DNA of 63,074 nucleotides from Candidatus Njordarchaeota archaeon (GCA_030587585.2 JAUQYS020000333.1:1-63074), one strand, 5' to 3'. Positions 5,233 to 63,052 are shown, numbered from the stretch's first letter. A program made the numbers and translations. Notes: generated by a model not told the origin, from the letters alone.

Positions 5233-6918
5233 CTATTCTTTTTTCTGTGTCCGTGGTTTTATTTTGTATGTGCCATCGTCATAAAAAGTAATTGTTAGGG
5301 GTGGTACTGGGTAGAGATCTATTTTTGCTTTTTTGAAATCTGCGAACCACATGGGATTAGCAAAGACAAAATAAATGTAGTCTCTGCGGTAATATCGGGC
5401 CCACGTATATTCTGGATACACATCATTTGGGATGCTGAATGTTACTCTTTTTTGGATCTTCATACTTGTTTTTAGGCTATAAATATCGAATGTTCGTGGA
5501 TGAATAAAGTCCGGTTCTTTGTTTCCCATCCTTCTTTGTGGCGGTTTGTACCCCATGTATCTATAGAAGAACCGCTCAAACATATCCCCAACAAACCCGC
5601 TCGCCATAACATTTGTAACAGCATAACTAAGTTTGCTCACATCAATCTTGAGAATATCTTTGAGATGCGTATATGGTGGAGCACGTGCATCGTCTGGAAG
5701 AGTTATCAGATATGCAACAATTTTTTTGAATATTGCCCATGAGCGGGGCATAATGCTCTTATATCTTTTCGGCGGTTCGTCTTTGTTTTTTATCAATTCT
5801 GCGAGATAGAGACGAAAATTCCTCCTCGGAGAAATCTTTCTTTTCTTTTCTGCCGCTTTTTTTGCTTCTTCCTTCTTTTTTTTGAGTGCCTCTTCAAGAT
5901 CTTTTTTTGCTTCTGACCCTATCTTTTTTGCTTCTTCCTTAAATGGAGATGGTGGCCTTATTTCGTCTATCGGCCTAGCCCCCGACAATATTTTCTGTAT
6001 TTCCTCCATAGCGTATGTCGCAAAGAACCGCCTATAATAATCTGATCCCTGTATTCCCGCAAGAAACATAAGGTACTCGACCTGACTTCTTTTCTTTATT
6101 TCTGGTGCTCCTCTCTGCTTCCAAACAAGCAGCACTTTTTTTAGATCCTCCTCCAACTGTTCTTGGGAATATGTAACACTGCTAAGACCACCCGAGCTCT
6201 GGATTTTTTCTATGTTTCTGAATTTTTCTTGGAGATACCAATTGTAGAATTCTTTGTCGTCCAATACCTCACTAACATCTATTATTGCCCAGCCAAGACA
6301 GCGGCGAAGTCTCGAATAAACAACGCATAGAGTCTGTTTTTTTTCTCTGAACTGACCAACAACCTCCAACCATAATGTTGGGCTGACGAGTTGTTCTATT
6401 GGTACAGGATAGCAGAAAATCCATGAGTTCTGTTGGGCACGCATAATTGCCTGAAGATTTTCAAGCTGATTCGCCACCGTCCTCGCATCGTACCCAGCTA
6501 ATGCGGGGGCTTCGTCTTGGATTATTATGTCCCCGGGTTTCAGTTTTTTGTATTTGTCTACTGTCTCGGAAAAACTGAAAGTGAGGTACAGATCCACATC
6601 TCTGCCATGTTTTTTCCATTCTCGCTGGATCATTCTCGCTATTTTTAGTGCTAGGGTTGATTTTCCGCCGCCCTGAATCCCAACGATCTGCATAATTAGA
6701 TGCCCCTCATTGTTGATGCCCCATGTTATTTCTTCCTTGACTATGTGGCTTACAATGCGTCCCTTTCTCAGCGGTTCTCTGCCCGGTTCATTTATGAGAA
6801 TTTTGAATAATTCCCGTTCGGTTGGACGCATATGAAGATCTGAAAAAATAGAGGAAGAAGAACCGACAACATATTTTTCTAATAATCGGTTGATGTTTCT
6901 CTTGTTTTTTATGGCCAA
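5233..6918 (-). CDS. P-loop NTPase (561 aa), possible packaging/translocating ATPase
   Basis: Walker A VGIQGGGKSTL, Walker B GDIIIQDEAP; long K/E-rich linker and unassigned C-terminal domain. Confidence 0.7.
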   Translation of the reverse strand: MAIKNKRNINRLLEKYVVGSSSSIFSDLHMRPTERELFKILINEPGREPLRKGRIVSHIVKEEITWGINNEGHLIMQIVGIQGGGKSTLALKIARMIQREWKKHGRDVDLYLTFSFSETVDKYKKLKPGDIIIQDEAPALAGYDARTVANQLENLQAIMRAQQNSWIFCYPVPIEQLVSPTLWLEVVGQFREKKQTLCVVYSRLRRCLGWAIIDVSEVLDDKEFYNWYLQEKFRNIEKIQSSGGLSSVTYSQEQLEEDLKKVLLVWKQRGAPEIKKRSQVEYLMFLAGIQGSDYYRRFFATYAMEEIQKILSGARPIDEIRPPSPFKEEAKKIGSEAKKDLEEALKKKKEEAKKAAEKKRKISPRRNFRLYLAELIKNKDEPPKRYKSIMPRSWAIFKKIVAYLITLPDDARAPPYTHLKDILKIDVSKLSYAVTNVMASGFVGDMFERFFYRYMGYKPPQRRMGNKEPDFIHPRTFDIYSLKTSMKIQKRVTFSIPNDVYPEYTWARYYRRDYIYFVFANPMWFADFKKAKIDLYPVPPLTITFYDDGTYKIKPRTQKKE

Positions 6919-6928
6919 ATGTCCTCAC

Positions 6929-7138
6929 TTATATAAGTCCTTCTTCCTGGAGAACACGATATATCACATCATCATTGAATCCCCTGTGCTTCAGCATCTG
7001 ATATATTTCTGATGCGTCTTTGCCAGAGCTTTTTTGTTCCTGGACAATTTTTTTAACTAAAAAGTATGCGTTTTGTTGTTGTTTTTGTCTTCGTATCTCT
7101 CTTGCAAACATTTTTATTCTCTGAGGAACAAGACTCAT
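6929..7138 (-). CDS. hypothetical protein (69 aa)
   Basis: ORF; ATGA overlap with upstream gene. Confidence 0.55.
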   Translation of the reverse strand: MSLVPQRIKMFAREIRRQKQQQNAYFLVKKIVQEQKSSGKDASEIYQMLKHRGFNDDVIYRVLQEEGLI

Positions 7139-7464
7139 TCCGTGATCACCTCTATATCGTTTTCACCGCCTTTGCCTTTCATCATATTTTCGAGAATAAC
7201 AACATCTCTCTGGAATAGATCTAGCATGTCCTCAAGAGAGGCGATAAGTATGTCGAGTACCTTCACTAGTTTTTTTGATCTAGCTAGTTGCCGTTTTACT
7301 TGTAGCTGAAGATATGCCTCAACAAGCGGACGAGGTGGCGGAACATTTTTGAGAAGACCAAAGAGCTGTGGATTTCGGTTTTCTCTTAGCTTAATAAACG
7401 CTTGAAGCGTCTTCATAAAGTTTTCTTTAAATTTGGCTTCTGGAGAAAGCTCGGCAATACTCAT
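7135..7464 (-). CDS. hypothetical protein (109 aa), coupled to RNAP gene
   Basis: ORF; ATGA overlap with stop of 7461-10541. Confidence 0.6.
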   Translation of the reverse strand: MSIAELSPEAKFKENFMKTLQAFIKLRENRNPQLFGLLKNVPPPRPLVEAYLQLQVKRQLARSKKLVKVLDILIASLEDMLDLFQRDVVILENMMKGKGGENDIEVITE

Positions 7465-10400
7465 TTTTTACCACCATTCTCTAATTCATTTAATTTTTTA
7501 AGAAGATGACGTTTTCTTTTACTGACCTTAAAAATAAGTTTCTTGTATACCCTTGCCTGTGCCCCTTTTACGCCGCCCTCTTTGAGAATACCTTTTATAT
7601 GAGTGAGTAGTGCATTTAGCGTTTCGAGCTCCATTTCTATTTGTTTTTTGTTGAATTTTTCTTTTTCTTTGCCCTTGAAAAGTTTCTCTCCCGCTGTTAA
7701 AGAATATAATATCATGCGGTCGAGATATCTACGATCATCAAGCTCTAGACCTATTATCTGTGCTTCGTTCTTTATTTTTTTCTGCATAAATATCCGCAAT
7801 AACTGAGACTTTTTCTTTCCGATAAGCTCCTTTTCCACTTTCTTCAATTTGCGGTATGTTTCTATATCTCTTGTTTTTGCTTTCATTACCTGTTCGATAT
7901 CGAGAGCCTCATTGATTCTTGCTATATCAATGCTATATTTTTCTGGCAGTGGAACTAGAGTAAACATTTTTTTTCTAAGAGCACCATACTTCTTTATGTC
8001 CCTGTCGTCTTGCCGCCGTGTCTCTATATTATATTCTCTCACTGCTTTTGCTAATGCTTCATCATCCTTATACATAGTCATAATATCCGCATCAGATATC
8101 TCAAACTTGACTGGCTTAAGCTTCTTAAGGTCTTCTTTAGATAATTTTGGCATAAACTCTCTTGATAATGGCGGAACAAATAATGCTACTGTATCACCAT
8201 CAAAGTCGATAGTTGCTTTCTCAGCTGTTATCGGGTGCAGGCCGATAACATATTTATATTTTCCCGAATGATCGATACGCACTTTTAGAGTCAAAATACT
8301 GCTAGAAGTTGTTACTGGTTCTTTCCTAACAGTCACCAAGTCTCCTTCCTTGACGCCAAGTGCCTTTGCTGTCTCGGCATCAAGCAACACTTCATCGGGT
8401 GCTACATCTGCTGCTACTGCGTGGCGATCAATACCAAGCATGTATCTGGGTTTGAACATAAGCTCGTATATTCTCCGCAAAATAAATTTCCGCATGGGAT
8501 GAAAAGTGGCCTTTTTTTCTGCCTCCGACATCGAAGCATCGATCCCCATTTTTCGGACTTGTCCCTGATGATCGATGTAATAAAACTTAAGAAATAGAGG
8601 GATGTATATCTTCTTGTATGTCTTTGCTTTCTTTGTACCCCATGCAACCGTATGTTCATAGTCTATCACCTCTCCATACTCGTCAGGTTTTGGTTCTTTC
8701 TCATCAAGAACAAGACGATATTTGTGCGGGTCTTTGGGATCACGAACAAGCTTGAGGTGAAGTACCTTTAGTAATTGTTGGAGTTCTTTTCCAACAAAAT
8801 AAAATTGTTTCCATAACTTTTCTGGTTTCTCTTTTTCCAATGCACCCATAAGAAATGTCCAAGACATTTTGACTCCGTTCGAGGCATAGTTAGCGGCTAT
8901 ATGTTCTGGATCGGGAAAAATAAAAACATAGCCATCACCCATTTTTTGTTCCAAGAGAAGTGCTGCTTTTCTCTTGTTTAATTTTTTCTTGTATTCACGT
9001 ATAATAAGTTTTTCTTCTTCAGTAAGTTTTTTGCCATCCGCCTGCTTCAACATAAGTTCTTTTGCCTTTTTCTCTAACTCTTCGGGAATATCAGCCCAAA
9101 CATCAGTTGGATTCACATATATAATCGGCTCTTTTCCAGGAATAATATCCGTGACTACTCCCTTTATTCCCGTTCTGCTCATAATTTTATCGCCGACTTG
9201 AAGTTCAGCTTCTCGGATAATCACATATGGTCTGGTATAATATACTAGGCCATATTGCCGCACATGCTTCTTTGGTGGACCAAGCCAATGGACTTTTCCC
9301 TCAAAGGGAGAATATACGCTTGCGATACCTGTGCCTACATCCTTTAGAGGTACTGTTACTACGGGATCTCCTCTCTTTACGTATGTACCTTCTGGAACAA
9401 ACCCGTCCTCAGTAGCTGCGTATGCTTTCTTTTTTACTGATGTGAATACATATCTGAACTTTTTGGCTGCGGCTTTGGTTATGACTACTCCACCGCCATA
9501 CGTTTTTTTGAATAGTTTTGGAGCAAGAGCAAGTTTTAGTTTAAGATTTACGCCTTCACCAGCGATATCATTTCTTATTGCTGGGACTTTTGGAAATTCT
9601 CCATATAGAAGCTTCATTCTTCCCTTATTTTTTGCTATTGCATGAGCAGCTATCTGAAGCCTTTTTGGTGGCGAATAATTGTAGAACGGAATATTATATA
9701 CTGCTGGTGAAAAATGTTTAAATTTGCCATTTTCATCTATATCACATATCATTCTTTGCATACCTCTCTGTGTTTTATCGTTGCTCGCATAGGCTGGACA
9801 AAGTCTGATCTTTTTCAATTCATCAGGAATCATTTTTTCATAGACCATATCGCCAAATTCCCTAGCGATCTTTTTTTCTTCTGGAGTCGCCTTGACCGAG
9901 AACTTCGATACATCGCCACCCAACTCCTTGTATATTTTTTTTGCTTCTTCGAGTTCTTTTGGTGTGATGCTATATGCTGTGAGTATTGCTTCGTCGGGAA
10001 CCCCCTCTTTTAGGGACTTGAATATGCGCTTATATAGACGTTTTTGTTGTTCGATTGCTTTTACGTATAGGCTTCTGAGATTTCGGCGGATTATGTCGCC
10101 AAGAAAAATATACATTCTCAAATCTCCGAAACGCTCTGTGAATGGTACGACTGGGTCCCCTTTTCTGTGCGGGAGCAAACCGAGATATTCTGGCGAAAGA
10201 AAATCATTCATACCTAAATAAAAGGGTCTGAACTCCCGCTTTATATTTTCTAATGCCTGCATAGCGGCTTGTCTTTTTTTCTTAAAATGCATTCTGAGCT
10301 CGGAGATTTCCCGTTTATCTATTCTCTCGTTCTTGAGCAACTCATTTATTTCTGTGCGGGATATTCCAAGCCACTCTGTGAGCTTATTTTTCTTCATCCA

Positions 10401-10541
10401 CGGCCTAATAAGAATATTATACCGCAACAATATATCCTTGTATTCCCTAGGACGAAGCAACATATTATCATTCCTAGCCAGATCTCCCTTCGGCTTCATA
10501 GATATTTTTTCGGTTTTGAGTTTTTGAGGCGACAAACTCAT
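7461..10541 (-). CDS. single-chain two-barrel (fused beta-like/beta-prime-like) RNA polymerase, 1026 aa
   Basis: beta DPBB motif VGDKIMSRTGIKGVV (nt 9156-9194); beta-prime DPBB motif VRKEPVTT...LHPITAEKATIDFDGDTVALFVPPLS (DFDGD nt 8193-8207); GGGTGATG SD. Confidence 0.8.
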   Translation of the reverse strand: MSLSPQKLKTEKISMKPKGDLARNDNMLLRPREYKDILLRYNILIRPWMKKNKLTEWLGISRTEINELLKNERIDKREISELRMHFKKKRQAAMQALENIKREFRPFYLGMNDFLSPEYLGLLPHRKGDPVVPFTERFGDLRMYIFLGDIIRRNLRSLYVKAIEQQKRLYKRIFKSLKEGVPDEAILTAYSITPKELEEAKKIYKELGGDVSKFSVKATPEEKKIAREFGDMVYEKMIPDELKKIRLCPAYASNDKTQRGMQRMICDIDENGKFKHFSPAVYNIPFYNYSPPKRLQIAAHAIAKNKGRMKLLYGEFPKVPAIRNDIAGEGVNLKLKLALAPKLFKKTYGGGVVITKAAAKKFRYVFTSVKKKAYAATEDGFVPEGTYVKRGDPVVTVPLKDVGTGIASVYSPFEGKVHWLGPPKKHVRQYGLVYYTRPYVIIREAELQVGDKIMSRTGIKGVVTDIIPGKEPIIYVNPTDVWADIPEELEKKAKELMLKQADGKKLTEEEKLIIREYKKKLNKRKAALLLEQKMGDGYVFIFPDPEHIAANYASNGVKMSWTFLMGALEKEKPEKLWKQFYFVGKELQQLLKVLHLKLVRDPKDPHKYRLVLDEKEPKPDEYGEVIDYEHTVAWGTKKAKTYKKIYIPLFLKFYYIDHQGQVRKMGIDASMSEAEKKATFHPMRKFILRRIYELMFKPRYMLGIDRHAVAADVAPDEVLLDAETAKALGVKEGDLVTVRKEPVTTSSSILTLKVRIDHSGKYKYVIGLHPITAEKATIDFDGDTVALFVPPLSREFMPKLSKEDLKKLKPVKFEISDADIMTMYKDDEALAKAVREYNIETRRQDDRDIKKYGALRKKMFTLVPLPEKYSIDIARINEALDIEQVMKAKTRDIETYRKLKKVEKELIGKKKSQLLRIFMQKKIKNEAQIIGLELDDRRYLDRMILYSLTAGEKLFKGKEKEKFNKKQIEMELETLNALLTHIKGILKEGGVKGAQARVYKKLIFKVSKRKRHLLKKLNELENGGKK

Positions 10542-10550
10542 AGCATCACC

Positions 10551-11801
10551 CTATAGGAAAAATATTCCCAATATACCGAATATGAAGCCAGCAATACCCA
10601 AAGCCAAAATGAAATAACCATAATCCTCGATAAATCTTTCCATCGGAGATCTTATCTGTTTTCTAACAGAATTAAACGCCATAAGCCAAATCTTCAGAAT
10701 ATCTGCGGCCCTATCCTCAGCCATAAGATCTATCTGAGCATTAAGATTCTCATACGCTTGCTTATAGAGATCTCTCTCCCTCTTCACTTCTTCTAGCTTG
10801 ACCCGCAACATCTCTGACTGGTATTTGTCTATCTTAAATGCTGCTTCGAGAATATCAGCCATCTCTGGCGGCTTTGGCAGATCTGATCCCTTGAATAAAT
10901 GATCAATATGATTAACACTAAACGCAAGATAAAACAACGGAACAGACCCCTGTGCCTCAACAGAAACAAGATAACCAACATGGACCAACCAGACTGGAGT
11001 ATATTGCGCCGAAACAAAATATCCGTTCTCGTAGAGCGTCGTAGTGAAGTAGCGTAGTTCTTCTATTGGAAACGGCGACATTATCCAGCGATATTCAGGA
11101 AGTTCGTCTTCATCACCAAGAGTACATTGAACCAGATAATAATAGTACTTTCCGAATTCGAGTACTTTTACTCCAGGAGGAAACGGCTCGGCCGGACGCA
11201 CAATGTATTCTTTTTCACCCATCTCCATCTTGATTGCTTCTTCTTGCTCCTCATCATCCTCTAAAAGTGCATGCATAGGGCTTTCAGGATTTTGATTCTC
11301 ATCTGTTTGTTCCTCAGCAACTGGAGTCCCGCCGTTTGGCTGAAATCTCTTAGGGATCTTTATTGGGACTGCTACTGCTGCTTTGTCTGAGTTTGGTTTT
11401 GCTATTGGTTTGATAGAATATAGACGGATTATTTCTCGCACATAGTCCGTACCGATCTTTGTGTATGATTCCCAATGGTTGTATGGTCTTATCGCTATTT
11501 CTGCTTTTCGTTCCAGATGATAATAAAGAGGAATCATCACGCAGTACGATACTATCAGAACCAGTATCAGTTGCGGAAAAGTAACTATGCCCATCGCTAT
11601 TAAGATGTCTGGAGCAAAAATAAGCAATGAGAAGAAAATGAAGAACGGAGCAAGGCCAAGAAAAGCAACAAAGCTTCCAGCGTATTGCATATCTTTAAGG
11701 GGTGGCATCGGAAAAACTAGCACATCTCCGACATATTTTTTCTTCTTTTTGAAAAAAAAACCGAGGATTCTTTTCTTCAGACTCTTACCCAACATGTTCA
11801 C
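10551..11801 (-). CDS. multi-pass membrane protein with acidic loop and C-terminal coiled coil + TM (416 aa)
   Basis: N-terminal TM helices, EDDEEQEE stretch, C-terminal hydrophobic anchor; 4-nt overlap with upstream gene. Confidence 0.65.
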   Translation of the reverse strand: MNMLGKSLKKRILGFFFKKKKKYVGDVLVFPMPPLKDMQYAGSFVAFLGLAPFFIFFSLLIFAPDILIAMGIVTFPQLILVLIVSYCVMIPLYYHLERKAEIAIRPYNHWESYTKIGTDYVREIIRLYSIKPIAKPNSDKAAVAVPIKIPKRFQPNGGTPVAEEQTDENQNPESPMHALLEDDEEQEEAIKMEMGEKEYIVRPAEPFPPGVKVLEFGKYYYYLVQCTLGDEDELPEYRWIMSPFPIEELRYFTTTLYENGYFVSAQYTPVWLVHVGYLVSVEAQGSVPLFYLAFSVNHIDHLFKGSDLPKPPEMADILEAAFKIDKYQSEMLRVKLEEVKRERDLYKQAYENLNAQIDLMAEDRAADILKIWLMAFNSVRKQIRSPMERFIEDYGYFILALGIAGFIFGILGIFFL

Positions 11802-14800
11802 CTTCTATATTCTTTAATAATTTTATGTTGCTTATAATCTTCTACTTGCCATTCACGAGGAATCTTAGGCAATCTTTGTTTTTGTTTCTTCTTTTTGTTG
11901 AGAACGGCATCAACATCACCAGTGAGCAGCAAGCGAAGCTCATCTTTTGATGAATTCTTCAACATTGTATATATCAGAGGTATGCCTAGAAGAACAGCCA
12001 TCCCCCCGAGCAGTATTTTGGACCAATACTGAAATTCGTCCTTAAGAGCATCTGATGTTTCTCTGGCTAGACGTGCTTCATAGGCAGTGGCCTTCACATC
12101 ATTATTCATTATCTGCATCTGGTCCTTTATTGTCGGGATCTCGTCATGTATGTAGGTATATGTCTTGTTTATGTTTGAAGAAATTATTGTTATACGATTG
12201 ATTAGCGTTGCGTTCAGCCGATCTAATGTAGAATTAACAATAAGCACAGTACTATTCAGATCGATAAGCATAGCCGAAATGTTGCTATACTGATTATTTA
12301 TGGAGATATTCATAGAGTATATCGACTCATTTATCTGCGACAGATTCTGGTATATTTTTACTGTAAGGTTATTTACCTCCCAAAACAAAGTCGAATTGAC
12401 TTGCGTTAGGTTGAAGTATATCCAGTTAATCTGCGAAGATATATTCGAATTGACCTCCCTGAGATCATATTGTATCTGAGTAAGCAAACTACCAACAGTA
12501 GTATTATTCATACCCAACATAATCGTAATATTCACCACCGTCTCGTTTATCTGCGAATTCCAAAACGAAACATTCAGATACACACTAAAAACAAGCGTAC
12601 TCAGAGACTCATTCATATCATAAGTAAAGTTATACAGATCTTCTATATTGGACAAAACATCGCCAAGAGTATTTCCCTCCAAGATCCAAAAATAGTCCCG
12701 AGAAACTGTCAGCGTAACATTAAACCAACTTCCACCAGGATAACTAACATTCAAGATATATACCCCCTCGAACAGCAAATATTCTGTGATCTCATGTGGC
12801 GCAAGCCACTCACTAAGCTCAATATCCGTATCACTCTTTTTAAGCGAAATATGTATAAAAGAGTCATCCTTGCCATTAAAGAACTTCCACGAATAAACAT
12901 CCAGAACAAAATCCTGAAAATAAGCATAATCCCTCGGCTCAAAAATCAGCCTATTACCCCAAATATCCGTAACATTAAACCACAAATATTTCCCGTAAGG
13001 ATGCCGATATACTTCATCATAAACAGGCCGCCACCGTAATCGCCCCTTCAGATACGCTATCTCCCGAAGCTCATCCAAGGATATGTATTCTTTTTTAAGC
13101 ATTAACTCATCAACATTCTTCCCTTCGATCCAAGAAAAACTCAAAGTAGCCGTACGGTTATATTGGATACTCTCCGAATTGGATGAAAAATCAATCTCAA
13201 AAATAAGTCTCGATGATGCGTTTTGAGAAATAGCTAAAAAACGAAAACCCATAGCAGAAACAACAAAACCAGAACAATTAACATAAAAATCTTCACCAAA
13301 AACAATAAGCGTAAAAATATCAGCAGAAAAAACTTTATCCGATAAAGAAAAATTACCCACCCACCCAAAAACTCCTCTTTCCCGCTCCGAAAAAGAAGAA
13401 CTCACATTAAGAGCACCAAGCCCAACGCCCGGAACATACGCAATTAATGTTCCCTCTAAAAAAGAAAAAGAAGATGCATTAAAAAGCCAACCGACCTCAG
13501 TCTCATTTAGTGTTCGGTTAAAAAACAATATGTATTTCACTTTTCCTTTGTAATATCTAATCTTCACCCAGCGATCTTCACCAATCGATAACTTGTAGTT
13601 CCCACTATCATCAAGTTGTAAAGTATAGCTCAATATCTCGGTGTCGTTCTCAAATATCTCAATAAGATCTGTTGTAGCATTATACCGCAACAAAAAACTC
13701 GTCCATGTTGTTGTGTTTCCGTAATAATTACGAACATCTTGTATATCCCCCTGATTGGTAATAACTCTTTTATGTGTGCTGTTGAACGGATTCTGATAAA
13801 CAAAAAACTGTGGTTTACAGACAAATTTTCCTTGCCCATCATCACTTACACTTGCATAATTATCCGCTTTTTCGAGAATATAGATTGTTACACCATTCTC
13901 TGTAGGAAATTCAAAAATATCGGTTTGGAATCTAGACTGCTGAAACACCGCATACCCATTTTCAAATGTAATCGGATCTCCTTGTGTAAGAGTGGCATTA
14001 TGCAAATTCAACGCCACATCGTGCAGAAAAGACCCCGTCGTGTATGGATCGTTTCCCGTCAGATCGTATGCCAGATACAGATCGTCTATCTTCACACTCG
14101 CCGTTCCCGTCGAATTAGCATCACCAAAGACCTCGCTCGGACTATTCGCCACATATATATGCAGCGACTCAAAATCCACGTGTGTCCCTCTACTTGTGTG
14201 AAAAGAGATACGACTCTCCTCCTCAACCGCATAATTCCAAGTATCCTCGCTCTTAAACCAAATCTCATACGTCCCTGGTATGGTTGCTGTGAAGATCTTG
14301 CTCGATGCGTCCCATGTTCCTTCAATGTTCGAGAAATAAAACTCCCAAGTATCAGGAATCGCAGAGAAATTCACTCTAACAGAATATTTAGGAATTTGAA
14401 CTTCAACTTTATGTAAAACTTCGGAACCATTATCGACTACTTTATGTTCAACTGACAGATATTGGAATCTATTTGTTGGCCTTATAACAACATAATCAAC
14501 ATTAATAATACGTTCCTCTTCTGAGTAATGTGATCCTTCAAAATATACATATAGCTTACCATTATAGTGATCACATTCACCAAAACTAACAGTAACTGTT
14601 TTAGAAGAATAAGATGTCCCAAATGTTACACATCCTTTCAAATCATACGAAATCATGACAGGAACTGACGAATCTGGATCATACATTGTCTTATATGACC
14701 CAACCTCCAAACTCCATTTTCCAGTATCATTCACAAAACACCCGCCAATTTCGATAATATATTCCCCGAGAAGAGGAGGTAATTCTATTACAAGCAATTT

Positions 14801-15151
14801 TTCTTCTATTACCATGTTTATAGGCCACCATTGTGAAACATTTATCCCTACAGAATCTGCAAGCATCACTATACTGCGATTTATTTCAGTCATATTGAAG
14901 TCAGTAGTTCCATAAGTATAAGTTCGTTTATAATATACACGGTATGTATGCTCAAAATTTATTGCCGGCAACTCTAAACTCACATTCAACCAGTCCACCG
15001 CATCTGTCGTGTTCACCTCCCTCGGCATCTGCCACGGCTCCTCAGGAATATGTGCTTTCCCATCGTTATAATTTGTTGTTGCCAATACGTTTGCAAACAT
15101 TAATGCTATTATTACGATTAGGAGGATTGCGTCTCGCCTCATTTTTTTCAC
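11798..15151 (-). CDS. large type I membrane glycoprotein with LamG/concanavalin-like domain and sequon-dense coiled-coil stalk (1117 aa)
   Basis: Signal/anchor ILLIVIIALMFANVLA; LamG_3-like end GKVKYILFFNRTLNETEVGWLF (about nt 13480-14050); about 19 N-x-S/T in nt 12140-12645; C-terminal TM ILLGGMAVLLGIPLIYTML. Confidence 0.75.
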   Translation of the reverse strand: MKKMRRDAILLIVIIALMFANVLATTNYNDGKAHIPEEPWQMPREVNTTDAVDWLNVSLELPAINFEHTYRVYYKRTYTYGTTDFNMTEINRSIVMLADSVGINVSQWWPINMVIEEKLLVIELPPLLGEYIIEIGGCFVNDTGKWSLEVGSYKTMYDPDSSVPVMISYDLKGCVTFGTSYSSKTVTVSFGECDHYNGKLYVYFEGSHYSEEERIINVDYVVIRPTNRFQYLSVEHKVVDNGSEVLHKVEVQIPKYSVRVNFSAIPDTWEFYFSNIEGTWDASSKIFTATIPGTYEIWFKSEDTWNYAVEEESRISFHTSRGTHVDFESLHIYVANSPSEVFGDANSTGTASVKIDDLYLAYDLTGNDPYTTGSFLHDVALNLHNATLTQGDPITFENGYAVFQQSRFQTDIFEFPTENGVTIYILEKADNYASVSDDGQGKFVCKPQFFVYQNPFNSTHKRVITNQGDIQDVRNYYGNTTTWTSFLLRYNATTDLIEIFENDTEILSYTLQLDDSGNYKLSIGEDRWVKIRYYKGKVKYILFFNRTLNETEVGWLFNASSFSFLEGTLIAYVPGVGLGALNVSSSFSERERGVFGWVGNFSLSDKVFSADIFTLIVFGEDFYVNCSGFVVSAMGFRFLAISQNASSRLIFEIDFSSNSESIQYNRTATLSFSWIEGKNVDELMLKKEYISLDELREIAYLKGRLRWRPVYDEVYRHPYGKYLWFNVTDIWGNRLIFEPRDYAYFQDFVLDVYSWKFFNGKDDSFIHISLKKSDTDIELSEWLAPHEITEYLLFEGVYILNVSYPGGSWFNVTLTVSRDYFWILEGNTLGDVLSNIEDLYNFTYDMNESLSTLVFSVYLNVSFWNSQINETVVNITIMLGMNNTTVGSLLTQIQYDLREVNSNISSQINWIYFNLTQVNSTLFWEVNNLTVKIYQNLSQINESIYSMNISINNQYSNISAMLIDLNSTVLIVNSTLDRLNATLINRITIISSNINKTYTYIHDEIPTIKDQMQIMNNDVKATAYEARLARETSDALKDEFQYWSKILLGGMAVLLGIPLIYTMLKNSSKDELRLLLTGDVDAVLNKKKKQKQRLPKIPREWQVEDYKQHKIIKEYRR

Positions 15152-21619: not shown

Positions 21620-22285
21620 TCAGAATGGTACACCACCTCCCGCAGCTATTGCTAACAACAAGTCATATATTCCATGAATAATCATCACGTATGATATTTT
21701 TCCCGTTATGTCCATAACAAAACAAAAGTATAGTGCAGCTATGAATGGCCAAATCATAATCGTAGCATTCCCACCATACGCATAGGCATGATACAATGAA
21801 AAAGCAAATGCATCTAAAATGTAGGCTATTATTTTTCCGAAACCACCATACGGACTAAGCACACGGAGGATCATAAGTAATATAAACCCCCGGAAAAACA
21901 TCTCTTCGGCGACGCCTATAGATAGATTATACGCAACTGTAAGTGCAGACACATTCAGGGAGCCCGCCGCCATTACGGACCTTATGCCCATCGCTAATAA
22001 TGGCAGACCGAGAAGCACAATAAATATAATATCCAGAACAGAAAAACGATAAACTATCGACATCCCAAACATAAACGCTCCGGCACCAAGAAAACAAAAA
22101 ATAAGAAGAAAATAAAAATGACGCTGCGTTTCTGGATTTGCCTGAAAGAAAGTAACTGCAAATCCCAGCCATATTATCGTCATAATATACAACGTTAAAC
22201 CAAAAAGATCCATCTCGTATCTCGAAAATCCTTTCTCCCGCTGAGGCGCCCCCAATGTCGGAGCTTGCGGCATATTTTTCGTCAC
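21620..22285 (-). CDS. CPBP family intramembrane glutamic/metalloprotease (CAAX protease/Abi family), 221 aa
   Basis: Motifs GVAEEMFFRGF, FAFSLYHAYA, IIHGIYDLL in a polytopic protein. Confidence 0.85.
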   Translation of the reverse strand: MTKNMPQAPTLGAPQREKGFSRYEMDLFGLTLYIMTIIWLGFAVTFFQANPETQRHFYFLLIFCFLGAGAFMFGMSIVYRFSVLDIIFIVLLGLPLLAMGIRSVMAAGSLNVSALTVAYNLSIGVAEEMFFRGFILLMILRVLSPYGGFGKIIAYILDAFAFSLYHAYAYGGNATIMIWPFIAALYFCFVMDITGKISYVMIIHGIYDLLLAIAAGGGVPF

Positions 22286-27654: not shown

Positions 27655-27873
27655 TTATTTGTTTTTCTTTTTCTCTACGAATGCATGTCGAAGAAATTTG
27701 TCTATTTCTTCGATGATCTCATCCACATCAACACTCGTATCATCGATACGGATCACGATTTTAAATTTCTTGAAAAGCCACTTCCCACTTATTAAAGAAT
27801 CTCTGCCCATCACATTGATACTGCCCCACCAAGCAGCGCAACCGCCCAGATCTTCCCATTTTTTCTTTCTCAT
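27655..27873 (-). CDS. hypothetical protein (72 aa)
   Basis: ATGA overlap with recombinase stop. Confidence 0.45.
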   Translation of the reverse strand: MRKKKWEDLGGCAAWWGSINVMGRDSLISGKWLFKKFKIVIRIDDTSVDVDEIIEEIDKFLRHAFVEKKKNK

Positions 27874-28532
27874 TTCTTCACACCCCCTCCTTGTTCGCTT
27901 TCTTTTTGTCTCAGTCCTATTGTATAGCCTAGTTTTTTTATTCTCCGTCTTAGCTGATCATAGCTAATGTCTATTCCATCACTACGCATAATTTTCCAGA
28001 TAGCTCTGATACTTAGCCCATCATATCGCTTAAGATATTTGATTATGGTGTTATTGCTCACTTTTGGCGGTCTTCCCTTTTGTTTTCCTGCTTCCCACGC
28101 AGCTAGTTGTCTTTCTCGTCTAAGCCGCAGTTCCATCTCTGCAAGCCACGAAAAAATTCGTATCAGCAAGTCTCTTATGTTCTCATCTTGTATTTGTAGC
28201 CATGTATCCTTAACAGACATTATTTTAACACCAAGCTCTTTTTCTAGTTTATCAAACAAACTAAAGATATCTCGGAGGTTATAGCCGAGCCTAGTGAAAT
28301 CAAAAACAATAACATATCTGACTATATCTTTTCCACCCGAGCTCAGAAAATTAATCATCTCCGCAGCCCCATCTCTTTTCATCCAAGAAACAACACGCCG
28401 CACGCCCTTATCAACAAAATATTTTATGACTTCTATGCCCTTCTCCTTAGCAAATTTTTCGATTGCGAGCTTCTGGACATTCTCATCTTGCTCTTTTGTC
28501 GAGACCCTTATATACGCAACTGCTCTCTCCAT
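27870..28532 (-). CDS. serine recombinase (resolvase/invertase family), 220 aa
   Basis: AVAYIRVSTKEQ catalytic-serine motif, resolvase core, C-terminal HTH-like LSIRAIWKIMRSDGIDISYDQLRRRIKKLG. Confidence 0.9.
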   Translation of the reverse strand: MERAVAYIRVSTKEQDENVQKLAIEKFAKEKGIEVIKYFVDKGVRRVVSWMKRDGAAEMINFLSSGGKDIVRYVIVFDFTRLGYNLRDIFSLFDKLEKELGVKIMSVKDTWLQIQDENIRDLLIRIFSWLAEMELRLRRERQLAAWEAGKQKGRPPKVSNNTIIKYLKRYDGLSIRAIWKIMRSDGIDISYDQLRRRIKKLGYTIGLRQKESEQGGGVKK

Positions 28533-37744: not shown

Positions 37745-38599
37745 TTATTGTTTCTGCGATATATCATTGCGATAACTAAGGTATAGACGCCATACTCTAT
37801 CTGGATGCGGTTTCTTTTTGCCATGTTTTTTTACTTCTATTCGAACCAGCTTTGCGATCAGCGGCATTGCTTTTTTTGGATTAAAAAAGTTTTCGCCAAG
37901 TTCTATGTGTGCTTTGTTTATGGCTCCGAGTATTTCGCTATTTGGTAATTGGTCTGGAGGATATTTTTCTAGTTCGGGTTTCCATTTTGCGAAGAATTGT
38001 GCTTCATAATTCTTTATTACTACTCCCTCGTGTTTACTAAATTTTTTTGCTAATGCGACAAGTTCATCAAAGCTGCGTGGTTCTCCAGTAACGAACTCAA
38101 CCGAAATATTACTGATCGGTCCAGATCGCCATTTGTCTGGCTCAACAAATCTTTTTTCGGAAACACTAAACACATCAAAGATTCTTAGGTCCCATTCGTA
38201 CATCCAGTCCTTGTGGATCCTCATAGGAGTATTTTTATATCCAAATAGTTCTGCAAAAACAATAAACTCATTTTTTTCCATCCATTCATAAAGAGAGTCT
38301 ATTGTTATGTCGGCCACCGCTGGATTATAGGAATTATTTATTGCTTCGATGAATCCTCTGATAAACTGTGGCGTGGCTACAAGTTTTCTCCGAGAAGAAA
38401 TTATTAAGTATCCCTCACGAGCAATAAGCCGAATATTAGAACCATCAAACTTAGGCTCAAAATAAAGCACACCACGAAGCCTATCATCATACTTATACTT
38501 CTCCACATAATCAATATCGGGATAAGAAACACCGATACGAGAGATAATATCCCGAATCCTCGGCGGAACCTCTTGTTCACTCATCGGAATATTAACCAT
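37745..38599 (-). CDS. ATP-dependent RNA/DNA ligase-like nucleotidyltransferase (284 aa)
   Basis: Motif I EPKFDGSNIR (KxDG), FAELFG, EGVVIKN, FAKWKP in covalent nucleotidyltransferase order. Confidence 0.7.
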   Translation of the reverse strand: MVNIPMSEQEVPPRIRDIISRIGVSYPDIDYVEKYKYDDRLRGVLYFEPKFDGSNIRLIAREGYLIISSRRKLVATPQFIRGFIEAINNSYNPAVADITIDSLYEWMEKNEFIVFAELFGYKNTPMRIHKDWMYEWDLRIFDVFSVSEKRFVEPDKWRSGPISNISVEFVTGEPRSFDELVALAKKFSKHEGVVIKNYEAQFFAKWKPELEKYPPDQLPNSEILGAINKAHIELGENFFNPKKAMPLIAKLVRIEVKKHGKKKPHPDRVWRLYLSYRNDISQKQ

Positions 38600-38707
38600 C
38601 AGACTCACCTGCATTCGCCACATTTTCTTAACATCATATCATTTTTTCTATTGAAAAAATTTTTAAAAAATGTGCAGATTCAAAAAAATTCACCAACCGA
38701 AAAAAAA

Positions 38708-38783
38708 TGGTCGCCCCGGAGGGATTTGAACCCTCGCACACCGGGTTACAGCCGGCCGCTCTACCAAACTAAGCTACGGGGCG
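38708..38783 (-). tRNA. tRNA-Tyr: tRNA-Tyr (anticodon GTA), archaeal/eukaryal type, CCA encoded
   Basis: Hand-folded cloverleaf: acceptor CGCCCCG/CGGGGCG (C1-G72), D arm GCTT/GAGC, anticodon arm GCCGG-CTGTAAC-CCGGT, 4-nt variable loop, T arm GAGGG-TTCAAAT-CCCTC, A73, CCA. Confidence 0.9.
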
Positions 38784-38798
38784 GATCCCCTTACCATA

Positions 38799-39656
38799 TT
38801 ATCCCAAAAAAAGTGTAGAAAAAGATTCCAAAATTATTTTATTCGAATCTATCTCATCATATAGGAGAAAGGCTCTAGGCTCAAAACATTTATCATCTGA
38901 AAAAGGGATTAGTGGCTCTATTTGCGCTTGACTATCAAGCTCACTCATCCACCGCAACAATTTTTCATACACCACTATGCATCCTTTTATTTTTCCTTCC
39001 ACTTTTTCGGACATTGGAGGCTCATACAGTAACTCAAAAAGCTGTGTAGAGATCTCCCAATAATTATACATTGTTCGAAAGAATGCTTCTTTATTCAGAA
39101 ACGGACAGAAAAGACAGTTGCCGCTATGTTTTATTTTGCTGTATAGCGGATTTTGGGGGAGCCTTCTTTTTTCTATGTAGGTACATATTTCTTTTTTGGA
39201 CCATTCTGCTATTGGTGCTATGGCCCAAGACCGCCACAGATCAACGTATTGGTATTCTTTTATTAATTCGTATCGTTTTTGTCTATCGCTTCTTTTTACA
39301 CCCGTTATCATCAAAGATTTGGGATATTCTCTGGCTACTTGCCGCCAGACATCATATTTATGTCTTTGAGCACACCATCTCATCCCTGTGATATATGGAA
39401 AGCCCTTTTGTCTGAAATTCACGAATAAATTTTTATCTAGCCACGCAATTAGAAGATTTAAGTCATATTGTTCACAAATATCTTTGACATATTCTGTACA
39501 TTCGGGCGCTGTGTTTCCCTTTATGGGAGTGTAGAGAACGACAAATTTGTCTTTAGGAATACTCCTCGCAACAAGGTCAAGAACAACAAGAGAATCCTTG
39601 CCGCCACTAAACAAAACAAAAATATTATTGAATTTTCTTGTGTAGTGTCGTATCAT
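38799..39656 (-). CDS. PAPS reductase / PP-loop ATP pyrophosphatase family protein (285 aa; alternative start 39701)
   Basis: VLFSGGKDSLVVLDL PP-loop, C-terminal CLFCP cysteine pair; ORF-track N-terminus overlaps the upstream gene and was trimmed. Confidence 0.8.
   Translation of the reverse strand: MIRHYTRKFNNIFVLFSGGKDSLVVLDLVARSIPKDKFVVLYTPIKGNTAPECTEYVKDICEQYDLNLLIAWLDKNLFVNFRQKGFPYITGMRWCAQRHKYDVWRQVAREYPKSLMITGVKRSDRQKRYELIKEYQYVDLWRSWAIAPIAEWSKKEICTYIEKRRLPQNPLYSKIKHSGNCLFCPFLNKEAFFRTMYNYWEISTQLFELLYEPPMSEKVEGKIKGCIVVYEKLLRWMSELDSQAQIEPLIPFSDDKCFEPRAFLLYDEIDSNKIILESFSTLFLG
39174..39187. promoter_or_regulatory. 14-bp palindrome TATGTAGGTACATA (intragenic copy)
   Basis: Exact copy inside the PAPS-reductase-like gene. 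Confidence 0.5.
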
Positions 39657-39675
39657 TCTGCATGACTGCTGAGTC

Positions 39676-40257
39676 TTACCAGAAAGCAATGAGCTCACCA
39701 TCCCATCCCTGACGCCATTCAAGCAAAATCTTAAGAAACGCATATAGCTCTATTAATGCTTTTGCATCTTCTTCATCGAAGTATTCATCGTTAAACATCT
39801 TCCCTAAGATCTCGGCATAGGTTTTCCACGAAAACTTTTTTGGTTTTTGTTGTTCCAAAAAGACATCTTCTAAAACATCCAAAACACGAATATTTGCAGG
39901 ATAAGGAATTCTGTATTGGACTTCCTCATAAATAAATGTCGCCGGTCTTTCCCCCTCTGGCGGAAAAATATTTTTCGGCAAGACCCCTTCGATATAAATA
40001 AGCAGATCCTCTAAATCCACTCTTCTAAGATTACTATAAAGAGATACATAACAACCAAATAAACTAGATACGTCTTTCACTATCCAATAGTACTTCTTTC
40101 CCCGAATGGAGCACGGTCTATGAGGCACTACCGCCCAGGTATGCCTCAACTTTTTGAATGGACAATCAATCTCGCTACACATTATTTTGTTGTTTTTTAC
40201 TTTTGCTATTTTCCACGCTATGCACGGAACAGGAGATACATAGTTATCTAAACCCAT
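39676..40257 (-). CDS. hypothetical protein (193 aa)
   Basis: Trimmed 12 nt; cassette 40263-40286. Confidence 0.6.
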   Translation of the reverse strand: MGLDNYVSPVPCIAWKIAKVKNNKIMCSEIDCPFKKLRHTWAVVPHRPCSIRGKKYYWIVKDVSSLFGCYVSLYSNLRRVDLEDLLIYIEGVLPKNIFPPEGERPATFIYEEVQYRIPYPANIRVLDVLEDVFLEQQKPKKFSWKTYAEILGKMFNDEYFDEEDAKALIELYAFLKILLEWRQGWDGELIAFW

Positions 40258-48423: not shown

Positions 48424-48723
48424 TCAAGAGAACAGTATTTTTTGGAATAATGCTAAAGATTGGAGCAGTTCTTGTTCACGCATTTTTGCTAAGACCCGCA
48501 TCTGGATTATGTGTTCCTTTATTTTCTGGATTATTCTCATAATTATTTCTTTTTCTTTCGGTTCAATAAGGCCATTCTCAACAAATATGTCTAATACTTC
48601 CTCACATTTTGAATCGAAATTCTCGGCCAAAACATCAATATTATACTGATTAGCGACCTTATCCACTACAAGAAAACCAATAACAATCAACATAAAATTC
48701 CTTCTCAAACCTGGCATATTCAT
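48424..48723 (-). CDS. hypothetical protein (99 aa)
   Basis: GGTGATG SD; cassette 48729-48751. Confidence 0.55.
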   Translation of the reverse strand: MNMPGLRRNFMLIVIGFLVVDKVANQYNIDVLAENFDSKCEEVLDIFVENGLIEPKEKEIIMRIIQKIKEHIIQMRVLAKMREQELLQSLALFQKILFS

Positions 48724-61592: not shown

Positions 61593-62864
61593 CTATATTA
61601 TACCAATATCATCAAAACTTTCGAATTTTTCCTCAACAACAGCACCCTTCTCCTCCTTCTTTTCTCCACCAAGCAAATCGCCGAACAACCTACCAAGAAT
61701 ATCCGCAATCCTCTCCTGAGCCTCAGCAAGCTTCTTCTGACTAAACGCAAGAGCATTAACCTTCCTATGCAACTCCTCAATACCCTCAGTATTCCAAGCA
61801 ATACGCAAAGGCATCTCCAAAAAAAGCTCAGCCAAAACAAAATCATTAGTCTCCCACTCCACCTCACCAAAACTCCTATCAAACCAATCCCTAGCACTCC
61901 TCCTCAACTCACCAATAGGACTAACAGCACGCCTAGGCAACTCAACACCCATCCTCATCCTCTTCGGCAACTTCTCATCCCAAAACCCACCCAAAGGAAC
62001 AGCATACTCAATACTAATAGGCTCAACACGCACAACACGCAACGGAGTACGCTCAACAATAAACTGCACAACAAAAGCAACAACACTAAACACATAACCA
62101 CGAATCCTCTCAACAACATCCAAACCAAAATCAAAATCCCTAGCCCTAAAATGCAAAACAACACTCCTCGTAGTAGCCTCCAAAGTCACATCAACACCCT
62201 CCAAAGGAACACTAAAATAAAACGCCTCCCAATAACGCTTAACAACACTCCTAACAACCCTACCATCACCAAGACAACGCCTCAAAACCTCACCAACATC
62301 CAAACCAACAGCCCAAGGAAACAAACGAGACAAACTATCCGTATCCAACAAATCAACAACCAACTTCACCTTAAAATCATGCACCCTAACACGCCGAGGA
62401 ACAAACCTCCCCCCAAAAACACCCCCGACCGACCCACCACTCACACCTAGTGATACTTCTTCTTGTTTTTTTGGAATAGGTTTTGGTTTTTGTGGCTGTT
62501 CTTGTTTTGGTTTTTGTGTTTGTTTTTGTTTTTTTGGAATAGTTTTTTTCTTTTTTGTGGTTTTTTGTTGTTGTAGTTGTTGTTCTGGTTGCTTGGTTTG
62601 TTTTTTGTGTTGCTCTTCATAGTGTCTTATGAAGTCTTCACCTTTATATGTTATTCGGAGAAAGCTTGTTCTACCAATAGTTTTTTTTAGTATTAGGCCG
62701 TCTTGCGCCATAGTATTAATAGTATAACTAGTTGTTTTTATGGATTTTTTCAGATATTCGGCAACAGTCTTAACCGTAATATCGGGCCTATCTTTGTTTT
62801 TCTGCAAAAACTTCAGAATACGATACCGCTCCTCATTGTTTCTCTTCCTAGCCAAGATCATCAC
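61593..62864 (-). CDS. winged-helix (MarR/ArsR-like) N-terminal domain protein with K/Q linker and compositionally aberrant C-terminal domain; candidate Rep/regulator (about 420 aa)
   Basis: YRILKFLQKNKDRPDITVKTVAEYLKKSIKTTSYTINTMAQDGLILKK; first gene of the operon; iterons upstream and in the linker. Confidence 0.6.
   Translation of the reverse strand: MMILARKRNNEERYRILKFLQKNKDRPDITVKTVAEYLKKSIKTTSYTINTMAQDGLILKKTIGRTSFLRITYKGEDFIRHYEEQHKKQTKQPEQQLQQQKTTKKKKTIPKKQKQTQKPKQEQPQKPKPIPKKQEEVSLGVSGGSVGGVFGGRFVPRRVRVHDFKVKLVVDLLDTDSLSRLFPWAVGLDVGEVLRRCLGDGRVVRSVVKRYWEAFYFSVPLEGVDVTLEATTRSVVLHFRARDFDFGLDVVERIRGYVFSVVAFVVQFIVERTPLRVVRVEPISIEYAVPLGGFWDEKLPKRMRMGVELPRRAVSPIGELRRSARDWFDRSFGEVEWETNDFVLAELFLEMPLRIAWNTEGIEELHRKVNALAFSQKKLAEAQERIADILGRLFGDLLGGEKKEEKGAVVEEKFESFDDIGII
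62465..62542 (-). repeat. two intragenic iteron copies in inverted orientation (plus strand TTTTTTTGGAATAG at 62465-62478 and 62529-62542)
   Basis: Reverse complement of the upstream CTATTCCAAAAAA repeat; both encode IPKKQ in the linker. Confidence 0.6.
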
Positions 62865-62923: not shown

Positions 62924-63052
62924 TATTCCAAAAAATCTATTCCAAAAAATTTTCTATTCCAAAAAATACCAAGACGCATAAAAACACACAAAACTGCTCT
63001 CTGCGTCCGACCCATACAAAACACCATTTTTCAGAATTCTATTCCAAAAAAT
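62924..63052 (+). repeat. four perfect direct copies of TATTCCAAAAAAT (iteron-like)
   Basis: 62924-62936, 62938-62950, 62955-62967, 63040-63052; the last copy forms a near-palindrome with ATTTTTTAGAAT at 63052-63063. Confidence 0.7.

Follow-up and report, generated by a model that had tools for sequence, protein, structure and literature searches.

A predicted single-chain, two-barrel RNA polymerase in a mobile element from a Njordarchaeota assembly

The 63,074-bp contig JAUQYS020000333.1, assigned to Candidatus Njordarchaeota archaeon and analyzed here in its entirety (the window), was found to encode a 1026-aa protein that combines, in one polypeptide, the two catalytic barrels of the multisubunit RNA polymerases (RNAPs). 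The two-barrel polymerase fold of this protein and its homology to such polymerases are, in our judgment, almost certain, and the protein is likely to be an active polymerase. The best explanation of the evidence as a whole, and one that we consider probable, is that the protein is a self-contained, single-chain, two-barrel RNAP of a mobile element that has an archaeal host. The kind of enzyme is already known, namely the single-chain two-barrel RNAPs of mobile elements; the novelty lies in its family, in the domain to which its host belongs, and in the missing E-D dyad of canonical beta subunits.

Two polymerase barrels in one polypeptide

The polymerase has a computed mass of 118.8 kDa and a pI of 9.7, and the identical NCBI entry is annotated as 'hypothetical protein Q6363_007785 [Candidatus Njordarchaeota archaeon]'. 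Translation placed GDKIMSRTGIKG at aa 450 and DFDGD at aa 779, with the beta-like motif N-terminal of the beta'-like motif in a single chain. This agreed with a preliminary description of the same DNA, in which both barrel signatures had been reported in the order beta then beta', and the occurrence of the motifs is far beyond chance. The coordinates given there for the open reading frame (ORF) and for each motif (Table 1) were reproduced exactly by translation, and the full VGDK...GVV string is encoded at nt 9153-9197.

Pfam analysis of the single sequence returned Rpb2_6 (aa 443-469, E=1e-3, 18.8 bits; gathering threshold 23.4) and Rpb1_2 (aa 730-790, E=1.7e-3, 19.0 bits; gathering threshold 25.3) as the top two matches, and these land exactly on the two motifs. 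Across 16 family members, Rpb2_6 was identified in nine and Rpb1_2 in six. The nearest outgroup, sister-clade protein P0007, clears the Rpb2_6 threshold. A search of 5.8 billion clustered proteins identified five homologues of 35-45% identity, and a second, word-indexed search with a profile found no further members. An exhaustive hidden Markov model (HMM) search of 1.84 billion representatives identified 104 proteins at E<=1e-3, 15 of them at E<=1e-30. Many of the weaker HMM matches were single polypeptides with a textbook GDKxxGRHGNKG followed by NADFDGD, in the same order as in the window. One of these proteins, P0034, matched the family profile at E=2.7e-11 and has Pfam matches to Rpb2_6 (6e-44), Rpb2_7, Rpb1_2 (9e-30), and Rpb1_5.

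Profile-profile comparison by hhalign, in which the 16-sequence family profile was aligned with 11 canonical-type fused beta-beta' proteins, supported the assignment of both motifs made in the preliminary description. The beta module (aa 240-485) aligned with a probability of 99.75% (E=2.6e-27, 248 columns) and the beta' barrel (aa 696-794) with a probability of 97.5% (E=5.9e-12, 95 columns). Each motif was placed on its canonical barrel counterpart, within and not outside the catalytic loops; for instance, the beta-barrel motif was aligned to GDKLMGRHGNKG of the canonical-type proteins. The family profile was also searched against the PDB, and the best 60 matches were considered. These were RNAP subunits and P23-45 gp96, and included the largest subunit of plant Pol V, NRPE1 (E=3.6e-5, aligned via '...NRPPT...DFDGD...'), the gp96 virion RNAP of P23-45 (8H2N/8H2M, E~1.5e-3), dozens of bacterial beta' chains (E~0.01-0.07), and bacterial beta chains at the GDK motif (E~0.14-0.3). 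In addition, there were weak matches at aa 711-741 to other proteins with double-psi beta-barrels (DPBBs), Molydop_binding and the designed msDPBB protein 7dww.

Structure prediction pointed in the same direction. The AlphaFold (AF2) model made with a 33-sequence alignment had a predicted local distance difference test (pLDDT) score of 88.7 and a predicted template modeling (pTM) score of 0.84, the latter of which suggests a confident domain arrangement. A model from a six-sequence alignment (pLDDT 56.5, beta' barrel <50) was set aside. In the retained model there are six-strand blocks at both motifs (aa 415-476 and aa 699-788), as expected of the DPBB folds proposed in the preliminary description, and a long helix at aa 827-860. 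The N-terminal ~245 and C-terminal ~230 residues are helical and family-specific. Foldseek comparison of the model with the PDB produced 427 matches at E<=1e-3, and the best 50 of the 427 were all RNAP second-largest subunits, among them those of ASFV, vaccinia, Pol II, Pol IV/V, Sulfolobus, and Thermus. In a viral structure library, the protein ranked first was annotated as a phage 'minor tail protein', a single chain aligned over 1167 columns (E=1.2e-9, TMq 0.35); RPB2 subunits of giant viruses came next, and after them a crAss-type 'RNA dependent RNA polymerase'.

Based on these comparisons, we propose that a beta/Rpb2-type module (aa ~240-485) would supply the lysine-bearing barrel, with K452 and K460, and that a beta'/Rpb1-type barrel (aa ~696-794), fused downstream of it, would supply the Mg-binding DFDGD triad and the K-x-P strand. 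The beta module contains an IPF/fork-region motif, an E-P-V motif, a degenerate 'NFED' segment, and the beta DPBB. The region N-terminal to it (aa ~30-245) has no homology to canonical RNAP modules and produced only weak helix-turn-helix-type matches (DUF433 at aa 171-200, E=0.19; phrog_1181 at aa 33-72); it is possibly involved in DNA or promoter binding.

Catalytic residues are conserved across the family. In the six-sequence alignment DFDGD, G450, K452, R456, T457, G458, and K740-E-P742 were invariant, and over 33 diverse relatives the sole invariant columns were K452, G458, P742, D779, D781, G782, and D783. The two active-site lysines of the beta motif that had been proposed (K979/K987 in Rpb2) were thus recovered, K452 as an invariant residue and K460 as a residue that is Lys in most sequences and Arg in P0003. 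K740, E741, and P742 were invariant in 16 sequences, and K740 is a conservative substitution for the canonical Arg of the beta' R-x-P (Rpb1 R446). The invariant residues of the family correspond to those given as universal for two-barrel polymerases (PMC2919709).

LAGLIDADG inteins were identified in four of the 16 family members at three sites, all within the two catalytic barrels. The P0012 intein lies after residue 456 (window numbering), inside GDKxxSR|TGxKG, the P0014 and P0016 inteins lie after residue 763, 16 residues ahead of DFDGD, and the P0003 intein lies after residue 787, four residues past DFDGD. Essential information-processing enzymes tend to carry inteins in their functional cores, and the location of these sites within the barrels therefore argues that the barrels are functional.

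Relationship to known two-barrel enzymes

The preliminary description had grouped the protein with YonO, pGKL2, crAss gp66, and QDE-1. Our searches did not bear this out; the protein falls in a family of its own, with a beta module much closer to canonical beta than these enzymes are. No sequence-level match to YonO or crAss gp66 was obtained in the family-library or PDB profile searches, and among the PDB profile matches listed P23-45 gp96, through its DFDGD barrel, was the one solved single-chain enzyme with a link at the sequence level. By sequence comparison, the window protein is a divergent superfamily member that lies outside the YonO, crAss gp66, and P23-45 families.

The canonical-type fused beta-beta' proteins (P0034, of 1274 aa, P0050, and P0051), which were found only in metagenomes, resemble the window polymerase in being one chain of ~1000-1300 aa with beta followed by beta'. 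However, Pfam-significant Rpb2_6, Rpb2_7, Rpb1_2, and Rpb1_5, along with GDKxxGRHGNKG, NFED, and NADFDGD, are features of the P0034/P0050/P0051 type only, whereas the window family is without detectable Rpb1_5, Rpb2_7, or the E-D dyad and has its own helical N- and C-terminus. These proteins and others similar to them form a separate group of ~1250-aa single chains with fully canonical motifs.

Among enzymes of mobile elements, gp96 of Thermus phage P23-45, whose structures 8H2M/8H2N are those of a virion RNAP (10.1101/2022.12.01.518664), and gp64 are likewise single-chain two-barrel RNAPs, and come from a hot-environment virus. The match of the window family to gp96 is confined to ~70 residues of the beta' barrel and takes in DFDGD and the K/R-x-P strand, and gp96, unlike the window polymerase, has a bacterial host and is fused to a tail-tape-measure protein. 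The crAss gp66 and SPbeta YonO (B. subtilis) proteins are also minimal single-chain two-barrel DNA-dependent RNAPs of mobile elements that act without host core subunits. Both have been reported to be too divergent to align with cellular beta/beta' (PMC7481178). In contrast, the beta module of the window family aligns well with cellular-type beta, and YonO and gp66 both have bacterial hosts. A crAss-type predicted structure was a weak fold match to the window model (E=6.9e-4, 820 columns).

The cellular and giant-virus multisubunit RNAPs, which provided the top structural matches, have both barrels in common with the window polymerase, as well as the fork-region motifs of beta and the invariant residues (Lys, Pro, and the Asp triad). 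They differ from it in that the window polymerase is a single chain of roughly one quarter to one third of their mass, with no detectable clamp, bridge-helix, or trigger-loop sequences, no assembly-platform subunits, and no E-D dyad. Orf6 of the yeast linear killer plasmid pGKL2 and the QDE-1-type RNA-dependent RNA polymerases (RdRPs), both eukaryotic, are also reduced two-barrel polymerases, of extrachromosomal elements or silencing pathways (PMC2919709); neither came up as a sequence or structure match in our searches.

Role of the polymerase and host of the element

All 93 predicted genes in the window are on the minus strand (~90% coding) and the cumulative GC skew falls monotonically; this unidirectional layout is like that of phages with their own RNAP. 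We infer that the 1026-aa protein would be catalytically active on a DNA template and would function in transcription of the element, with a role as the element transcriptase being fairly probable as its main one. As we envisage it, the family would be carried by unidirectionally transcribed, virus- or plasmid-like mobile elements of ~56-63 kb, and the polymerase would perform DNA-templated RNA synthesis on the co-directional genes of its own element. For gene expression, the element would then rely less, or not at all, on the 10-12-subunit RNAP of its host, with the ATGA-coupled 109-aa and 69-aa proteins and the P-loop NTPase encoded downstream as candidate accessory factors.

Several observations weigh against this proposal. 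The window protein is under the Pfam gathering thresholds for both Rpb2_6 and Rpb1_2, and an NCBIfam search with it produced no match. Beyond the two barrels and the fork-region motifs of beta, nothing resembling the bridge helix, the trigger loop, the clamp, or any other canonical module was recovered by sequence; hhalign of the middle part (aa 486-700) and the C-terminal part (aa 795-1026) against the canonical-type proteins returned probabilities of 1.2% and 0.07%, respectively, with nothing aligned. Based on the model, the 34-residue helix at aa 827-860, downstream of the beta' barrel, is a candidate bridge-helix analogue; it has conserved N838, I849, G853, and R856 and no sequence similarity to Rpb1_5. 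In addition, the beta E-D dyad, which helps position Mg-B in canonical beta, is replaced by G349-G350 in the clade of the window protein (TYGGG or TYGSG), a loss that went unremarked in the preliminary description. The sister clade has T-x-E-[SAG]-G at this position, with the Glu alone retained. The dyad (E. coli beta E813/D814, Rpb2 E836/D837) is among the eight universal residues of two-barrel enzymes (PMC2919709). An intergenic k-mer search of the window revealed no promoter motif linkable to the enzyme, the status of the element as a virus is unsupported, and the host assignment is based on binning and indirect markers. Finally, the sister-clade gene P0010 is situated between a DHH protein and PriL within a PolB/ERCC4/DHH/PriL/RadA/UDG module, and this replisome setting fits a role in replication as well as one in transcription.

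The latter point is central to the first alternative, which we consider unlikely, that the protein is a replication primase or primer-synthesizing RNA polymerase for the PolB of the element, perhaps acting with a PriL-like protein. In the related metagenomic loci L002, L004, and L005, a PriL-like gene and a gene for PolB or a RecA-like ATPase follow the polymerase gene at a distance of 2-4 kb. These three loci and the P0010 contig each have a PriL-like gene (PF04104), no catalytic PriS flagged by Pfam nearby, and the two-barrel polymerase always close, and a functional link between the polymerase and priming is a possibility. However, most of the neighboring ORFs are unannotated, and a divergent PriS could be present among them. 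The window, which is without detectable PriL or PolB, still keeps the polymerase and its three downstream partners, and the characterized single-chain two-barrel enzymes of mobile elements described in PMC7481178 and 10.1101/2022.12.01.518664 are all transcriptases. These neighborhoods also qualify the earlier placement of the polymerase in a membrane/glycoprotein operon: the adjoining genes are as described, but the gene is equally part of an information-processing module, having PriL, PolB, and RadA neighbors in relatives.

It is likely that the host of the element is an archaeon. The tRNA-Tyr encoded in the window has a C1-G72 pair, a 5-nt variable arm, and an encoded CCA followed by a T-run. 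A C1-G72 pair and a short variable arm characterize archaeal and eukaryal tRNA-Tyr, as against G1-C72 and a long arm in bacteria; the window tRNA is therefore of the archaeal/eukaryal type. Shine-Dalgarno (SD)-like elements precede 42 of the 93 genes, where chance would give 14+/-4, and there are 24 overlaps between adjacent genes; a eukaryotic expression system is therefore excluded. A family homologue of 43% identity is present in a second, independent Njordarchaeota metagenome-assembled genome (MAG; isolate B7_G17), the loci of relatives carry PriL, ERCC4, DHH, RadA-like, and PolB genes, and the best named relatives of the AAA ATPase of the element are archaeal CDC48 proteins. The sequon-rich surface protein and the sense-strand oligo-T tracts in intergenic regions were counted as further pointers to an archaeal host. 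The specific host we infer to be a member of the Njordarchaeota (Asgard), an assignment in which we have somewhat more confidence than doubt.

These data bear directly on whether the element is bacterial, that is, a phage or plasmid mis-binned into archaeal MAGs and encoding a YonO-like phage RNAP, which we regard as improbable. Small, high-coverage contigs are error-prone in binning, and the element has a serine recombinase and a class II nucleotidyltransferase, which is of the bacterial/eukaryal type; archaea normally use class I enzymes. However, the features of the tRNA-Tyr are unlike those of its bacterial counterpart, the family has members in two independent Njordarchaeota bins, the relatives have PriL, ERCC4, and RadA-type genes, the AAA ATPase is nearest archaeal CDC48, and neither IMG/VR nor sets of 50,697 phage and 72,556 plasmid records contained a relative. 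The archaeal origin proposed in the preliminary description is retained.

The replacement of E-D by G349-G350 and the lack of a recognizable DNA polymerase on the window contig would suit a catalytically crippled or repurposed two-barrel protein with a structural, DNA-binding, or PolD-like DNA polymerase role. We consider this very improbable, as conservation across the 33 sequences is strict for K-x-P, for the Asp triad, and, save for the Arg at position 460 noted above, for both Lys positions, the inteins target catalytic sites, and no PolD DP2 chain was among the best 60 PDB profile matches listed. Moreover, relatives with the same enzyme also encode PolB, and the polymerase is therefore not a PolB substitute. 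Least probable of all is an RNA polymerase like QDE-1, RNA-dependent or able to use both DNA and RNA templates, that would serve to make dsRNA or small RNAs or to counter defences: QDE-1-type RdRPs are single chains with the same two-barrel core (PMC9508822), and one viral-library fold match is annotated as an 'RNA dependent RNA polymerase', but the beta module keeps the motifs of DNA-dependent RNAPs (IPF...R/K region, E-P-V; E=2.6e-27), the top fold matches are subunits of DNA-dependent RNAPs, and the crAss-type 'RdRP' name is a historical label for what was shown to be a DNA-dependent virion RNAP (10.1101/2020.03.07.982082).

Archaeal viruses have been stated to encode no RNAP (PMC5569661; 10.1101/2021.07.29.453957), and non-canonical two-barrel enzymes appear to be absent from archaea (PMC2919709). 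In agreement with the preliminary description, the searchable literature, which is thin in subscription journals, yielded no description of an archaeal virus or mobile genetic element with an RNAP of its own, and no counter-example to the dependence of archaeal viruses on host RNAP. On balance, and by a narrow measure, we favor the view that this is the first RNA polymerase of an archaeal virus or virus-like element, with an Asgard host, and that it transcribes its own unidirectional ~60-kb genome without the E-D dyad. If so, the rule that archaeal mobile elements depend totally on host RNAP would be overturned, an archaeal branch would be added to the minimal RNAPs used to reason on the origin of transcription, and there would be a bearing on the origin of autonomous transcription in viruses of the eukaryotic lineage. 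It would also prompt one to ask about transcription that does not depend on the host in archaea related to eukaryotes, and would provide a compact 119-kDa enzyme, probably thermostable, for studies of the minimal requirements of two-barrel catalysis, including how it copes without the dyad. The family is rare, with six close members among the 5.8 billion clustered proteins; this rarity, and its absence from phage, plasmid, and IMG/VR collections, would explain why it has been overlooked so far.

The polymerase neighborhood and other genes of the element

Metagenomic contigs of relatives, of 56-62 kb, share a block composed of a giant glycoprotein, a ~400-aa membrane protein, the polymerase, a ~110-aa ORF, a ~80-aa ORF, and a ~550-aa NTPase, and in L002, L004, and L005 this block runs on into PriL-like, RecA/Rad51-like, and family B polymerase genes. 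The ATGA overlaps of the window polymerase gene with the 109-aa and 69-aa ORFs, followed by the P-loop NTPase gene, were as previously described; the gaps are 9 nt between the 416-aa ORF and the polymerase and 10 nt between the 69-aa ORF and the NTPase. The earlier label 'glycoprotein' is reasonable for the 1117-aa protein, which has 45 N-x-S/T sequons (~13 expected from its composition) and homologues of 1061-1705 aa in the three loci. The 109-aa ORF had no family match, and in BLASTP its homologues were found at E=2.6e-22 (L002/L004) and E=8.7e-9 (L005). The 561-aa NTPase, with 42-44% identity in relatives, is as conserved as the polymerase. It has a Walker A region and only weak P-loop matches (NACHT, DnaA-like, SRP54), and family searches gave no assignment beyond 'P-loop'.

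Table 1. Features of the polymerase gene and other genes in the window.
Feature	Coordinates (nt)	Strand	Basis or remark
Single-chain two-barrel polymerase gene	7461-10541	(-)	ORF, 1026 aa
Beta-barrel motif GDKIMSRTGIKGV, active-site K452 and K460	9156-9194	(-)	Translation, alignment
Mg-binding aspartate triad D779-F-D-G-D783	8193-8207	(-)	Aligned with NADFDGD (HMMER, hhalign)
K740-E741-P742, counterpart of Rpb1 R446-x-P448 ('NRxP')	8316-8324	(-)	Aligned to N-R-P-P / N-R-Q-P
Beta (Rpb2)-type module, aa 240-485	9087-9824	(-)	hhalign; modeled strands E415-476
Beta' (Rpb1)-type double-psi barrel, aa 696-794	8160-8456	(-)	hhalign, PDB profile matches, modeled strands E699-788
All-helical family-specific N-terminal region, aa ~30-245	9807-10454	(-)	Model helices H32-243
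T347-Y-G-G-G351, aligned with canonical N-F-E-D-G	9489-9503	(-)	hhalign
Long helix aa 827-860, candidate bridge-helix analogue	7962-8063	(-)	Model H827-860, conserved columns
1117-aa sequon-rich putative glycoprotein, C-terminal hydrophobic anchor	11798-15151	(-)	First conserved gene of syntenic block
416-aa predicted membrane protein	10551-11801	(-)	Directly upstream of polymerase, conserved in relatives
109-aa ORF, ATGA overlap with polymerase	7135-7464	(-)	Candidate accessory factor, co-conserved in relatives
69-aa ORF, ATGA-coupled to 109-aa ORF	6929-7138	(-)	81-89-aa ORF at equivalent position in relatives
561-aa P-loop NTPase	5233-6918	(-)	Always downstream of polymerase
Class II nucleotidyltransferase, 482 aa	823-2271	(-)	PolyA_pol head E=9e-36 and RNA-binding domain
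Rce1-like CAAX-type membrane protease	21620-22285	(-)	E=1e-12
Small serine recombinase (Resolvase domain)	27870-28532	(-)	E=1e-27
RNA ligase (PF09414)	37745-38623	(-)	E=5e-10
tRNA-Tyr(GTA), host-domain marker	38708-38783	(-)	ARAGORN; Rfam tRNA 67.3 bits
PAPS-reductase/DndC-like PP-loop protein	38799-39743	(-)	E=3e-20
Single-domain AAA ATPase, 556 aa	43739-45409	(-)	AAA+ domain like D-domains of archaeal CDC48
Winged-helix protein, 423 aa	61593-62864	(-)	Family search

The genes of the element have almost no cellular homologues or family assignments. No capsid, portal, terminase, or other virion gene was recognized by Pfam, PHROGs, and NCBIfam analyses of ~50 ORFs, and the virion-delivered or late transcription machine suggested in the preliminary description is conjectural. 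The contig ends showed neither direct nor inverted terminal repeats. The PolB and PriL of L002 had no counterpart in the window at E<=1e-4, and the element may be incomplete or have a different mode of replication. Iterons were observed within or beside the gene for the 423-aa winged-helix protein at the contig end, with four copies of TATTCCAAAAAAT in direct orientation at 62924-63052 and inverted copies (TTTTTTGGAATAG) at 62467-62542; this array is a candidate replication origin or operator array. The serine recombinase might have a role in integration or resolution of the element. The 556-aa AAA ATPase is 36-40% identical to archaeal CDC48 over about half of the query, and its N-terminal ~300 aa are unrelated.

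Intergenic k-mers in the window were dominated by sense-strand oligo-T tracts. A T6-8 C[G/A] element was present on the sense strand no more than 45 nt (typically 10-35 nt) upstream of 24 of the 93 start codons (e.g., those at 48723, 48104, 47814, 45409, 34681, 5170, and 644), in most cases followed by a GGTGA SD-like element. In total there were 55 sense and 32 antisense copies of the element, and none was present in the related loci L002, L004, or L005. Within such short spacers it may act as a terminator of the archaeal type; a promoter or initiator function is another possibility. A second pattern, TTTGGAATWRWWTC, was considered as a promoter and rejected, as it had no genome-wide enrichment (four matches, 1.4 expected; 4 of 100 shuffles reached four).

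Some 5 kb separate the polymerase gene from that of the 482-aa nucleotidyltransferase downstream. The CCA-adding and PcnB models of NCBIfam cover the head domain of this enzyme alone and score below their cut-offs, and the enzyme could repair tRNAs or add 3' tails to transcripts of the element. The tRNA-Tyr gene is flanked by those of the RNA ligase and the PAPS-reductase/DndC-like protein. By analogy, the tRNA, the ligase, the PP-loop protein, and the nucleotidyltransferase look like a tRNA-repair or nucleic-acid-modification set, and comparable tRNA-repair sets are present in some phages that counter anticodon nucleases.

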